Shown here piece after piece: positions 987 to 32,073 of a stretch of DNA of 42,748 nucleotides. Where the stretch lies: positions 1 through 42,748 of IMG/VR virus record IMGVR_UViG_3300013383_000009; one strand, 5' to 3'. How positions within the stretch are numbered: position 1 is the stretch's first letter; the number at the start of each line of letters is the position of its first letter. The notes under the pieces were generated by a model. The model was not told the origin of the DNA. It searched no databases and saw only the letters and a list, made by a program, of their open reading frames with translations. The translations under genes and the position numbers were made by a program. This DNA comes from a virus.

Positions 987-1016
987 TTGACTGCGGCGGG
1001 GCGTTCGTGCTATAAT
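987..1016 (+). promoter_or_regulatory. Sigma70-type promoter (TTGACT, 18 nt, TATAAT) driving the small RNA
   Basis: TTGACT at 987-992 and TATAAT at 1011-1016. Confidence 0.65.
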
Positions 1017-1021
1017 CGCCT

Positions 1022-1136
1022 TGCAGGAGTTCAAAGACAGCGATTCTTGCTGTTAAATCCCCTCCCTGCCCGGTGCGGAGGTGGGGAGGGGAAACTCCTG
1101 CACCACGCCTCGTGTTACCGCACGGGGCGGTTTTTC
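1022..1136 (+). ncRNA. Candidate ~115-nt small RNA: three-way junction plus intrinsic terminator
   Basis: P1 is tgcaggagtt (1022-1031) paired with aactcctgca (1093-1102). P2 is acagc/gctgt (1037-1053). P3 is the cccctccc...ggggaggg hairpin (1059-1091). A terminator lies at 1106-1136. There is no ORF. Confidence 0.55.
1106..1136 (+). terminator. Rho-independent terminator
   Basis: 9-bp stem cgcctcgtg/cacggggcg, loop ttaccg, then gTTTTT. Confidence 0.75.
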
Positions 1137-1162
1137 TATCCCCGCCGCAGTCAACGCCCACC

Positions 1163-1219: not shown

Positions 1220-1386
1220 ACCTTCGCCAAAAGAAATTGTTAAAAGCCGCTTTCGTGGGGGCTGGTGTTTTTGTACCCTTTTTCGGTGGGCCTGATATAA
1301 AGATACCTCATAATTTGGAGTTATGCAAGCCTTTTTTAACTCTTTTTTTGGAGTTTGTTAATTCTCACAAATTGGAGGGCGCTTTT

Positions 1387-2643: not shown

Positions 2644-3237
2644 ATGGAGAAATCGTTGCAGGACACTTGTCGGGACGCAAAACTGGAACAGCACATCACG
2701 GCGCAGGAGATAGCAGACCAATCCGGTGTGCCTTTGTCCAGCGTCAACAACTTTTTCGCATCCACATCTAAAGCACCGGGCGTGTATGCGGCTGGCCCCA
2801 TCTGCAAGGTGCTGGGGGTGTCTATGGACCGTTACTTTGGCATTGTAGAGGTTGTTTTGGCGCAAGACCAAATCAAGCAGCTCCAGCAAGTCCATGACGA
2901 GGATGTGCGCCTTGCACGGATAGAGGGCGCATACGATGAGCTGTCCAAATCAGCAGAGGAGCAGAAGAAAAAAGCAAGGCGGCAGCGCACGATGCTGTAT
3001 ATCGCATCGCTGCTGTCCGCTATTCTGCTGGGTATAGTTACATGGTATGTGGCGCTTGATTACCGTGTGCAGGACGAAGGCCTGATCCGATCTAAGACAA
3101 CCGGAACGATTGCATGGATTGTCATTGCGCTTTTGGCGGTGGGTATCGGCGTACTTACATCCGTGCTATTGTCCACTCTTGCGGCGGACAAAAAATCCAA
3201 ACAAGGCGAGGAAGCAGAAAATGAGCAACTGCATTAA
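2644..3237 (+). CDS. Membrane-anchored HTH protein (N-terminal XRE-like HTH, coiled coil, two C-terminal TM helices)
   Basis: HTH ITAQEIADQSGVPLSSVNNFF. Hydrophobic segments MLYIASLLSAILLGIVTWYVAL and IAWIVIALLAVGIGVLTSVLLSTL. Overlaps the integrase start by 17 nt. Confidence 0.75.
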   Translation: MEKSLQDTCRDAKLEQHITAQEIADQSGVPLSSVNNFFASTSKAPGVYAAGPICKVLGVSMDRYFGIVEVVLAQDQIKQLQQVHDEDVRLARIEGAYDELSKSAEEQKKKARRQRTMLYIASLLSAILLGIVTWYVALDYRVQDEGLIRSKTTGTIAWIVIALLAVGIGVLTSVLLSTLAADKKSKQGEEAENEQLH

Positions 3238-4315
3238 ATGCGGAACAGCTCTTGTCCCGGGCGCTGTATATTGCCATCTCTGTGGCAAAAAACAGGTAAC
3301 AGAGCGGCGCAAGGCATTGAAGCGGGCAAACGGCACCGGAACTGTATACAAACTGGCTGGGCGTAGAAAATCGCCTTGGGTGGCCGCAAAAAACAAAGTG
3401 ATTATCGGGCATTATGAGCGCAAAACGGACGCTCTGGACGCTTTGGAGCGGTTGAACGGCAAGAGTTTAACGGAGCGGTATAATATGACCTTTGCGGAAG
3501 TCTTTGATGCTTGGAAAGAGGAGCATTACAAAGAGATCGGCAAGCAGGGGATAGAATCATATAACAACGCCTACCGCATATTTACGCCGTTGCACGGGAA
3601 AAAGTTTCGTGATCTCCGCACCGCAGACTTTCAGGCCGTACTTGACCCACACATGACCAAGAGCCATTCCACCGTGAACAAGTACAAGCAGCTCATAACG
3701 CAGATGTCGAACTGGGCAATCCGGGAGGAAATCTGCACAACAAATTTTGCAAAGTTTGTCCGGCTGCCGGAGAATGTCAAAAAAGAAAAGGACATCTTCA
3801 CGGAGGAAGATATCCGAAAATTGGAATCCGACAACAGCGATGCGGCGAAAATTGTCTTGATGCTGCTGGCAACGGGTATGCGTATTGGAGAGCTGTTTTT
3901 TTTGCCGCTGGCAGACTATCACGGCGATTATGTGATCGGCGGTGAAAAGACCGAAGCCGGACGAAACCGAATTATCCCCGTTCGCCAGGAGGGGAAAAAA
4001 TACTTTGCCTACTTTGCGAAGCGAGCAACGGGGGAGCTGCTGTTATCCGGCTACGATGGGCAAAAAGTCCCAGCAAACTTCCGCAGGCGTGATTTTTACC
4101 CACTCCTTGACCGGCTGGGCATAGAGCGCAAGACCCCACACGCCACACGCCACACATACGCATCCCGGGCGGTAAAAGAGGGATTGCCCCCGGAAATGCT
4201 GCAAAAAATACTCGGACACGCCGATTATTCCACCACCGCAAACATATATACACACATCGACGCGCAGACACTTGTGGATGCTGTTACTAACACGTTACTA
4301 ACAAATAAGAAATAA
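3221..4315 (+). CDS. int: Tyrosine integrase with N-terminal zinc-ribbon
   Basis: ATG at 3221 after GAGGAAG. N-terminal CIKCG...CHLCG. C-terminal HATRHTYAS...LGHADYSTTANIYTH gives the R..HxxR..Y catalytic signature. Confidence 0.92.
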   Translation: MSNCIKCGTALVPGAVYCHLCGKKQVTERRKALKRANGTGTVYKLAGRRKSPWVAAKNKVIIGHYERKTDALDALERLNGKSLTERYNMTFAEVFDAWKEEHYKEIGKQGIESYNNAYRIFTPLHGKKFRDLRTADFQAVLDPHMTKSHSTVNKYKQLITQMSNWAIREEICTTNFAKFVRLPENVKKEKDIFTEEDIRKLESDNSDAAKIVLMLLATGMRIGELFFLPLADYHGDYVIGGEKTEAGRNRIIPVRQEGKKYFAYFAKRATGELLLSGYDGQKVPANFRRRDFYPLLDRLGIERKTPHATRHTYASRAVKEGLPPEMLQKILGHADYSTTANIYTHIDAQTLVDAVTNTLLTNKK

Positions 4316-4327
4316 ACAAAAAAGAAA

Positions 4328-4361
4328 AGCCTTGAAACCGTTGAGTTTCAAGGCTTTTTTT
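4328..4361 (+). terminator. Rho-independent terminator after int (A-tract upstream, so possibly bidirectional)
   Basis: 11-bp stem agccttgaaac/gtttcaaggct, loop cgttga, then TTTTTTT. Confidence 0.8.
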
Positions 4362-4406
4362 GGTGCCCCGTCGGGGATTCGAACCCCGGACACCCTGCTT
4401 AAAAGG
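4361..4406 (-). other. attP core: 3' half of a tRNA (anticodon loop CUUUUAA fits tRNA-Lys-UUU) including CCA
   Basis: Minus-sense reading: cttttaa gcagg gtgtc cgggg ttcgaat ccccg acggggc a cca. That is anticodon loop, 3' anticodon stem, variable loop, T arm, 3' acceptor strand and CCA. The 5' half is absent. It lies directly downstream of int. Confidence 0.7.
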
Positions 4407-31389: not shown

Positions 31390-32073
31390 CCTGTTGATTT
31401 TTGGTAAGCAGACTATTTAGGACGCATCCCTTGTAGCGGTCTGCCAGCGCATATCCGCACTTTCGGGCAGGCGCTATGCCATTTGCCCACGGCAGCGGTT
31501 CTCCGCTTTTGGAGCGGCGCTGCGGTCCTGCCCCGCTTTAGCACTTCAGGGAAAGTCCCCGTCACTCGCTGTGGTCTCCCCTTACGGGGCACCTGCGCCA
31601 CATATTGGTCGTCTTCCCGCTTAGATTGTCACACGCTACCGGCAAATACGCTTCGAAAAGTCGTATCCCCTATTCCGTCTGGTCAAACCGGTCTTGACGC
31701 ATCAAGACAAGCGCAGTTTTCAGCGAGCATTGTCATTTCCATGTGAGCCACGACGAACGGTCTCACAGTGTCCGGGCGCTACCCGGCCTCTTGTGCAAGC
31801 GGCTGGACTCGAACCAGCGACCAATGGAATTCAATCGCATATCCATTTGCGCGATAAAGCTCTACCGACTGAGCTACGCCTGCATATAACAACAGCCCAT
31901 AGGTTTCCCTACAGGCTGTTTGTGCCGGTATGACCTTTCGGTGCCAGAAGGTGCGCCCATTACCGACGGCGCATATAGTATCGAAAGGAGGAGAGATGAA
32001 AGCTACATGGTGTAGCCGGGGTGGATGTCTTGGCTTTTGCCCAATCATCCACTATACACATTTTACCACATCA
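31390..32073 (-). ncRNA. Candidate large structured non-coding RNA (class unresolved; GOLLD/ROOL-like context)
   Basis: No credible CDS in 684 nt. An extended -10 (TGgTAAAAT, plus 32060-32068) sits at the 5' side. Many minus-sense hairpins carry GAAA, GUAA or UGCG loops. A tRNA-like module is embedded. Confidence 0.5.
31794..31883 (-). tRNA. tRNA-like module, 90 nt, with a non-canonical 40-nt D-to-T region (identity unresolved)
   Basis: Minus-sense GCAGGCG TA GCTC AGTCGGTA GAGC ...40 nt... GCTGG TTCGAGT CCAGC CGCTTGC A. The best anticodon arm is ATGCG-AUUGAAU-TCCAT (one C.C mismatch, anticodon UGA), preceded by a 17-nt insertion. Alternative helices ATCGC/GCGAT and AATGGA/TCCATT interleave. 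No CCA is encoded. Confidence 0.55.

Follow-up and report, generated by a model that had tools for sequence, protein, structure and literature searches.

In a temperate gut phage, which gene, if any, separates the divergent Cro-like and CI-like genes, when a strong promoter and a terminator stand there around no evident coding sequence? The question is raised by IMG/VR record IMGVR_UViG_3300013383_000009, the ∼42.7-kb genome of a siphovirus-like temperate phage of a human-gut Firmicute, of which the whole 42,748-nt stretch was analyzed (hereafter the window). A preliminary description, made from the letters of this one sequence, had proposed a self-contained small-RNA cassette at positions 987–1154 and had offered two roles for it, an immunity or regulatory RNA and a riboswitch-like attenuator. 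Our analysis indicates that 987–1154, here named type A, is very probably an independent small RNA (sRNA) gene housed in a polymorphic cassette slot. Comparisons were performed across a set of about 190 related loci, and the type A sample comprised 22 distinct variants from IMG/VR and ENA human-gut assemblies. Three of the results reported below, namely the polymorphism of the slot, the allelism with FuFi-1 RNA and the paralogy of one hairpin with a second site in the genome, lie beyond what the single-sequence view of the preliminary description could reach.

Anatomy of the type A RNA gene

The cassette promoter that had been read from the sequence, TTGACT (987–992) and TATAAT (1011–1016) separated by an 18-nt spacer, scored 11/12 in a consensus scan. 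Its -10 element is of the extended type (Table 1), and the TGnTAnnnT grammar is retained by every cassette type. The intrinsic terminator was also recovered on the plus strand at 1106–1136, where a 10-bp stem (1106–1129) is followed by the U-run GTTTTTCT; one compensatory change, C-G to U-A, was observed in it among the variants. Promoter grammar, terminator T-run and both arms of the flanking repeat are kept in more than 100 related assemblies. In substance the transcript is free of open reading frames (ORFs), as had been claimed: the mechanically called ORFs that cross the region lack a Shine-Dalgarno sequence and run through the terminator, and among the 22 variants 1-nt indels, and a length difference of 3 nt besides, disrupt them. 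The type A RNA does not contain any AUG. The downstream helix-turn-helix (HTH) gene, which is the CI-like gene, has a separate promoter as described (TTGACA, 17-nt spacer, TACAAT; 1191–1219; 11/12). The leader of this second promoter (1226–1300) was considered as a second sRNA and proved to be unstructured (z = +0.6).

The three-way junction and terminator drawn in the preliminary description are exactly the minimum-free-energy fold of 1022–1137 (-68.4 kcal/mol, z = -7.1), and none of 200 shuffled sequences folded as well. The junction by itself folds at -50.4 kcal/mol (z = -6.8). In the test of covariation that had been proposed for the helices, 94% of cells were paired across 21 type A variants and compensatory changes in P1–P3 numbered zero. 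The type A variants form a narrow clade of human-gut phages, with identities of about 93% or more throughout. Because the variants are near-identical, the case for the junction rests on thermodynamics together with intactness across independent assemblies: promoter, junction, P3 loop and terminator are whole in all but one (L182) of about 25 variants, which come from many independent human-gut assemblies. One type A variant has a substituted P3 loop, GGUUCGG.

Diverged homologues of type A were sought with a degenerate pattern of the junction and P3 loop; in IMG/VR the pattern returned the close clade plus chance matches only, and no diverged homologue was found in GTDB genomes either. A metagenome scan yielded 18 further near-identical copies and 2 chance matches. 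The preliminary description could place the junction in no known riboswitch class, and Rfam 15 agrees, as no match to the RNA was obtained at gathering thresholds in a scan of the whole window, and at E ≤ 10 only chance-level noise was seen over 900–1450 and 2340–2660. A hammerhead or purine-riboswitch-like junction was rejected given the unsuitable junction sequences (CAAA, AAA) and the silence of Rfam.

One contig, L182 (ENA, human gut), carries a natural deletion of the type A terminator between two direct copies of CCCCGCCGC, one of which follows P1 in most type A variants, the other being the core of the right repeat. The RNA of L182 would run through toward cI.

An exchangeable cassette slot shared with FuFi-1

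The perfect 15-bp inverted repeat reported around the cassette, at 987–1001 and 1140–1154, was returned by a repeat finder. The 15-mer has no further exact copies in the window, and we estimate that ∼1e-4 such repeats would be expected by chance per 551 bp. A search with the Cro-like protein yielded 39 IMG/VR loci, whose alignment with the window holds as far as position 1001 and resumes from the terminator or the right repeat, with a middle section of varying length. A scan with the 15-mer added about 80 loci. The resulting 61 distinct repeat-to-repeat units fall into four clusters (Table 1). The long units were identified by Rfam as FuFi-1 RNA (RF02986; 95–119 bits against a gathering score of 59.6). 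The 43-aa peptide of the peptide units matches phrog_5079 (E = 3.6e-9), a family with no function assigned.

Four cargo classes stand between identical left and right flanks, and the same cargo and repeats are found beside unrelated neighbors in L148, L065, L192 and L142, where homology stops at the repeat ends. In every cargo class the -35 lies within the left repeat and is followed by an extended -10, and the terminator precedes the right repeat. The type A cassette precedes two unrelated cI alleles. Slot polymorphism, allelism with FuFi-1 and independence of the cI allele thus argue for an autonomous, moron-like gene and not a cI leader. The claim that the RNA is an independent gene and more than a leader is upheld in this way from two sides: by its own extended -10 promoter, strong terminator and the separate promoter of the HTH gene, and because the same frame of promoter, terminator and repeats holds FuFi-1 or a small protein gene in sibling phages.

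Phage morons, an account of which reportedly goes back to Juhala and Hendrix in 2000, are promoter-gene-terminator units lying between conserved phage genes. The type A cassette qualifies as one, with an autonomous promoter and terminator, variable content among syntenic phages and a place in the lysogeny region. It differs from morons in that its cargo is a non-coding RNA, and in that the unit is bounded by conserved 15-bp repeats, one of which supplies the -35.

FuFi-1 RNAs are widespread and terminator-capped, seldom occur in 5' untranslated regions (UTRs) and have no known function (Weinberg et al. 2017, PMC5737381). In the slot they have the same layout as type A: the -35 lies in one repeat arm, an extended -10 comes next, and the structured RNA is followed by an intrinsic terminator and the other arm. 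Both are stand-alone, terminator-capped, phage-borne structured RNAs. This is a likeness of context and not of membership, as the two RNAs are unrelated in sequence and in structure. Type A has no FuFi-1 match in 900–1450 even at E ≤ 10, nor in the whole window at the gathering threshold, and its 81-nt body is half or less of the FuFi-1 length (a 175-position model, 157–264 nt matched here). Furthermore, the GGUAAACAAAUUUGG core and the upstream mini-ORF of the FuFi-1 cassettes found here are absent from type A.

The repeats themselves persist beside different Cro and CI alleles and are therefore unlikely to be operators of either protein. Cassette lengths, which range from 168 to 428 bp, show no helical phasing. 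Six independent substitutions in the arms, tallied over the cassette sequences, are all uncompensated and split 3:3 between the strands, which argues against RNA-level selection on a repeat stem; compensation was likewise not found in the neighboring repeat pair 1156–1167/1280–1291. Read most economically, the repeats are conserved joints at which cargo is exchanged by homologous or illegitimate recombination.

Several further observations were made on the slot. In the FuFi-1 cassettes of L004 (upstream of 3001, reverse), L059 (35–388), L040 (262–684) and L192 (2501–2890), a Shine-Dalgarno sequence and a conserved mini-ORF precede the RNA. The mini-ORF starts MT(K/N)LL(T/I/F)LP(V/A)P, extends for 16–18 codons in the two that were read through, lies outside the Rfam model and may encode a leader peptide. 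The 338-bp cassette of L139 represents another cargo type and seems to contain a small protein gene that runs opposite to the cassette promoter. Two extra small genes lie between cro and the left repeat in L016, L018 and L007. The FuFi-1 cassettes of L016 and L018 are probably decaying, since they are 5'-truncated and lack the -10 element. With a FuFi-1 cassette as query, blastn returned one unannotated fecal phage; among GenBank phages, blastn gave no match to the intergenic region of the window.

A family of promoter-proximal GGUGCGG hairpins

A second copy of P3 was found when the RNA was compared with the window by BLAST (2457–2487, opposite strand, 27/31 identities). This copy, hp2 (Table 1), is present in nearly all related loci whatever their cassette type, and it invariably sits in the intergenic region from which an HTH-transmembrane/integrase operon and a leftward small-gene operon (2351–1994 in the window) diverge. 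Its position is constant in three or more phage groups with different Cro, CI and flanking sequences.

P3 and hp2 belong to one hairpin family. In the 17 distinct variants of P3 and hp2 the 7-nt loop, GGUGCGG, never changes, and the 13-bp stem of the family shows compensatory changes at 6 of 13 pairs (26 cells). The covariation score of the stem was 0.464, against 0.200 for shuffles; none of 500 shuffles reached 0.464, and slid controls gave at most 0.13. All 16 tabulated variants have one to three G.U pairs when read in the GGUGCGG polarity, which become A.C mismatches on the other strand. As the G.U pairs occur in one polarity only, the hairpin is selected on that strand, minus for hp2 and plus for P3.

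Each copy of P3 or hp2 has a TGnTAnnnT element 40–43 nt before its start and a -35-like hexamer 17–18 nt further upstream, and this spacing recurs in four unrelated contexts. In the window, hp2 begins 41 nt past its extended -10; the predicted promoter scores below the threshold of the consensus scan. Between promoter and hairpin lies a small 5' hairpin followed by an A/U-rich linker of 5–8 nt. P3 of the window (1058–1092) has all four marks of the family, i.e. the loop, the covarying stem, G.U pairs on one strand and the 40–43 nt spacing. Similarity between type A and the hp2 leader spans the hairpin and the linker and, in the L192 group, also part of the preceding arm. The shared hairpin, linker and spacing indicate that type A is a free-standing paralogue of the hp2 leader to which a closing helix (P1) and a terminator of its own have been added. 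Rfam gave no match beyond chance for the hp2 region.

Between hp2 and the leftward small genes there is a perfect 9-4-9 palindrome, TGTTGCACA-CTTT-TGTGCAACA (2406–2427), which is a candidate operator of the integrase-proximal divergent promoters. Analogous palindromes occur at the equivalent place in the L142 and L192 groups.

Proposed function of the type A RNA

From these features we infer a scheme in which 987–1154 would act as a moron-like gene whose strong extended -10 promoter, 81-nt junction and terminator would yield a non-coding RNA of ∼115 nt. The slot between the divergent Cro-like and CI-like genes of human-gut Firmicute phages accepts at least four interchangeable cargoes. The leader module of hp2 consists of a predicted promoter, a small 5' hairpin, the A/U-rich linker and, from about +33 to +36, the GC-rich GGUGCGG hairpin. 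The likeliest mode of action of the type A RNA would then be mimicry in trans. By displaying the loop of hp2, P3 would bind, or compete for, a putative factor (protein or RNA) that recognizes hp2, and mimicry of this kind would tie control of the integrase-proximal operon to the immunity region, either in the resident phage or in superinfecting relatives. Taken whole, an sRNA gene in the slot, paralogous to hp2 and mimicking it in trans, is the best explanation we can offer and is put forward tentatively; its last component, the mimicry mechanism, is possible at best on its own terms and should be regarded as doubtful.

Decoy and mimic RNAs are known in other systems: GlmY mimics GlmZ for RapZ, and prophages encode the anti-sRNAs AgvB and AsxR. 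Another example is the sponge RNA SprY (PMC12197685). The logic proposed here is the same, a free-standing RNA competing for a partner by means of a copied recognition element. The likeness is functional only; the organisms and sequences of those systems differ from those of type A, and the partner of type A is putative.

A number of results weigh against this scheme. P1, P2 and the junction lack covariation, the single compensatory pair among the near-identical variants being the one in the terminator, and a few type A variants have uncompensated mismatches in P2 and P3. No recognizable RNA-binding partner was found among about 30 scanned proteins of the lysogeny region and early operon (Pfam, with subsets against PHROGs, NCBIfam and PADLOC). 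Phages bearing FuFi-1 or the peptide have no second GGUGCGG hairpin, and since they manage with one, the mimic must be dispensable. Lastly, the fixed distance from the promoter could point instead to a cis-acting, co-transcriptional role.

Alternative explanations

The small structured RNAs c4 of P1/P7, CI of P4 and sar of P22 are antisense RNAs of phage immunity regions (reviewed in PMC12197685). Type A resembles them as a small structured RNA in the immunity region of a temperate phage, with a loop-borne recognition sequence that recurs in the same phage, and the preliminary description had drawn the analogy to c4 and P4 CI. On this account the P3 loop would kiss CCGCACC of a plus-strand transcript over 2455–2489, e.g. 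read-through from the cI operon into the HTH-transmembrane/integrase operon, which would thereby be blocked or cleaved. Within the phage, no non-self site complements the P3 loop region better than the plus strand of hp2 does (-34 kcal/mol); P3 and the minus strand of hp2 share 27/31 identities, and no plus-strand terminator was found across 2020–2644. However, unrelated sites reach equal scores in the duplex scan, which over both strands of the phage returned as trans targets only the RNA's own antisense, the hp2 plus strand and sites at background level. The G.U pairs place the folding of hp2 on the minus strand, leaving the plus strand with one to three A.C mismatches, and the conserved promoter transcribes hp2 in the minus direction. 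In L192 the probable promoter of the HTH-transmembrane gene, read by eye, lies downstream of hp2, and within a phage the P3 and hp2 stems do not co-vary. The known RNAs also differ in being processed from a longer transcript, where type A has its own promoter and terminator, and the recurring element of type A has the polarity of P3 and is not complementary to it. Type A lacks a target next to an antirepressor gene, and no complementary site was found ahead of the Rha-type regulator, nor at any ribosome-binding site. Nor does it match Rfam, and hence it matches no c4/CI-type model if Rfam holds one. The analogy was thus not established, and we consider an antisense immunity RNA unlikely.

Type A could also be a functionless passenger, a duplicated fragment of the hp2 leader caught in a recombination-prone moron slot within one young clade. 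Its narrow spread, with all variants at least about 93% identical, would fit this account, as would the lack of covariation in P1 and P2, the occasional uncompensated mismatches, and the truncated, promoter-less FuFi-1 cassettes of L016, L018 and L002, which show that the contents of the slot can decay. Set against these are the intact promoter, junction, P3 loop and terminator of every variant other than L182, the folding z of about -7, and a closing helix and dedicated terminator that exceed simple duplication. We accordingly give the passenger account little credence.

A third possibility concerns the slot and not its cargo. If the lytic promoter lay to the right of the cassette, the cro leader would run antisense through it, and the Cro operon would come under convergent transcription or cis-antisense control whatever the cargo, with the cassette promoter and RNA interfering with cro and the repeats clamping the cassette as a stem. 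The distance from the cro start to the left repeat is 31 bp, into which no acceptable leftward promoter fits; the only candidates for a cro promoter are a promoter-like site at 1243–1215, leftward and right of the cassette, and a poor TGAAAT -10 at 986–981. The terminator is not bidirectional, in the fold of a hypothetical leftward leader the repeats form the closing stems, and the tolerance of unrelated cargoes would be accounted for. Yet the leftward promoter is weak (9/12) and putative, the six arm substitutions are uncompensated and evenly divided between strands, the pair 1156–1167/1280–1291 is uncompensated as well, and the likeness of P3 to hp2 is left unexplained. In our estimation convergent control is quite unlikely.

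The putL and putR transcripts of HK022 are antitermination RNAs. They share with type A and hp2 a pair of stem-loops at a set place just past a promoter, with copies in two transcription units per phage, and a cis-acting element of this kind that modifies RNA polymerase would allow read-through of the terminator to feed the cI operon, hp2 doing likewise for the leftward operon. The 40–43 nt distance from the -10 in four unrelated contexts, the conserved two-hairpin layout and the terminator deletion of L182, by which read-through is seen to be tolerated, are all compatible with this. There is, however, no sequence similarity to the put RNAs and no Rfam match, P3 is directly followed by a strong and apparently efficient terminator, which begins within 4 nt of the junction body, and cI has its own consensus-like promoter. 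The same frame also holds a peptide gene or FuFi-1, an RNA that is terminator-capped and seldom found in 5' UTRs (PMC5737381). The chance that type A is a put-like element seems slight.

The riboswitch-like attenuator of the preliminary description, which would control the downstream cI-like HTH gene, did not survive. The outline is right, with a gene preceded by a three-way junction and a terminator, and a 12-bp pairing of the 5' half of P3 with the 3' half of the terminator is possible. This sole antiterminator candidate (-32 kcal/mol) lies within the genome-wide background, and it is broken, without compensation, in common variants with a GAGACGG terminator arm. Moreover, the promoter at 1191–1219 intervenes between terminator and gene, Rfam contains no matching aptamer, one cassette type stands ahead of two unrelated cI alleles, and the alleles of the slot include a stand-alone sRNA and a peptide gene. 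We regard a riboswitch as highly improbable.

An inverton (invertible promoter) or an element like a miniature inverted-repeat transposable element (MITE), bounded by the 15-bp repeats, would explain the perfect inverted repeats around a promoter and the end of homology at the repeats beside unrelated flanks (L148, L065, L192), but is scarcely credible given one orientation relative to cro in about 100 instances with a cro-side flank, a promoter end next to a divergent neighbor gene also in the few that lack this flank (e.g. L148 and L065), a single copy in the 42.7-kb genome with no target-site duplication, and no dedicated recombinase adjacent. The match in L057 was spurious, falling in a coding region. 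A retron non-coding RNA was likewise rejected: the left repeat, which contains the -35, must lie outside the transcript, upstream of the transcription start, and no reverse transcriptase was found among the neighboring or early genes.

Candidate operators and genome setting

The positions of the features are collected in Table 1. The box at 976–985 is similar to ATGAGTTTTC, one half-site of the perfect 10-4-10 palindrome GAAAACTCAT-ATTC-ATGAGTTTTC (1163–1186). This palindrome lies just upstream of the -35 of the second promoter, and its central 4 nt are seen in relatives in either orientation, ATTC or GAAT. TGAG(A/T)TTTC boxes in this way abut the -35 of both rightward promoters, and those at 976–985 and within 1163–1186 are candidate operators of the conserved Cro-like protein, judging from their sequence and placement. 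Over the whole window, 32 9-mers fall within one mismatch of CCGCACCGG/CCGGTGCGG, against 16.7 ± 4.1 expected, a count reached by none of 100 shuffles. Directly upstream of cI there are also repeats specific to the cI allele, with TTTGGAGTT occurring twice in the window (1304–1322 and 1337–1355) and a CTTCAAG...CTTGAAG palindrome in phages that have a different cI N-terminal domain (L033 equivalent). Lying about 350 bp from cro, they are probably operators specific to the repressor.

Table 1. Features of the switch region and its surroundings in the window, and sizes of the repeat-to-repeat units found in related loci.
Feature	Position or length	Strand	Remarks
Cro-like protein gene	737–955	minus	72 aa; HTH_31/HTH_3; Pfam scan
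TGAGATTTC box	976–985	plus	directly upstream of cassette -35; kept beside left repeat in relatives
Left repeat arm TTGACTGCGGCGGGG	987–1001		contains -35 hexamer (987–992); left cassette boundary
Extended -10 TGCTATAAT	1008–1016	plus	TG at 1008–1009; consensus scan
Three-way-junction body	1022–1102	plus	81 nt; folding z about -7
P1	1022–1031 with 1093–1102	plus	10 bp; fold, repeat finder
P2	1036–1054	plus	fold
P3 hairpin	1058–1092	plus	loop GGUGCGG at 1072–1078; fold, hairpin family
Right repeat arm CCCCGCCGCAGTCAA	1140–1154		after terminator T-run; right cassette boundary
CI-like protein gene	1387–1746	plus	119 aa; weak HTH_3; Pfam scan
hp2	2455–2489	minus	P3 paralogue; 14-bp hairpin, loop GGUGCGG; between HTH-transmembrane/integrase operon and leftward small-gene operon
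Predicted hp2 promoter	2530–2559	minus	TTGCAC (2559–2554), 18-nt spacer, extended -10 TGATATGGT (2538–2530)
Tyrosine integrase gene	3221–4315
tRNA 3' fragment	4355–4400
Type A RNA units	168–171 bp
Peptide units	283 bp		43-aa Lys/Ser/Thr-rich peptide; leader sequesters its Shine-Dalgarno sequence
FuFi-1 units	354–428 bp		several, plus 5'-truncated derivatives
Further units			rare others

The early genes resume from the opposite, right-hand end of the window, a layout consistent with a circularly permuted genome. At 4330–4400, directly after the integrase gene, an A-run and a T-run enclose a hairpin that resembles a bidirectional terminator. It is followed, on the minus strand, by a tRNA 3' half (GGGGTTCGAATCCCC...CCA), the probable attP core. 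A tRNA-Ala gene (anticodon CGC) of ∼90 nt lies at 31794–31883 on the minus strand, as called by both Rfam (46.5 bits) and ARAGORN; it has an insertion relative to the tRNA model, with 34 nt where the model has 17. Inside the cI-like coding sequence, at 1604–1625 on the minus strand, there is a terminator-like hairpin with a T-run for leftward transcription, which falls in the C-terminal part of CI (KKAPGINAEG) that is common to different cI alleles. Among GTDB species genomes no relative of the Cro-like protein was found, and a search with the cassette promoter pattern gave three chance matches only.

Significance

Phage sRNA genes and morons are already known in kind. What is new at this locus is the type A RNA family, a repeat-bounded slot in the genetic switch that carries RNA genes, the allelism of that slot with FuFi-1, and the family of GGUGCGG leader hairpins. 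Few sRNA genes are known from temperate-phage switches, and type A adds a new, compact and structured one, here from uncultivated phages of human-gut Firmicutes. FuFi-1, until now an orphan, acquires a precise and testable context as a strong-promoter, terminator-capped cassette between cro-like and cI-like genes. Furthermore, a conserved promoter-proximal GGUGCGG hairpin that has been copied by an sRNA suggests RNA mimicry in lysogeny control.

A further speculation, which we put forward as rather unlikely, is that the slot serves phage competition as an exchangeable “RNA weapon rack”, from which the RNAs of a lysogen (type A, FuFi-1) would strike at relatives of any immunity type. If type A does act as a decoy of the conserved GGUGCGG leader hairpin, the result would be RNA-based superinfection interference that crosses immunity groups, and if the slot is such a rack, FuFi-1 would gain its first functional context.

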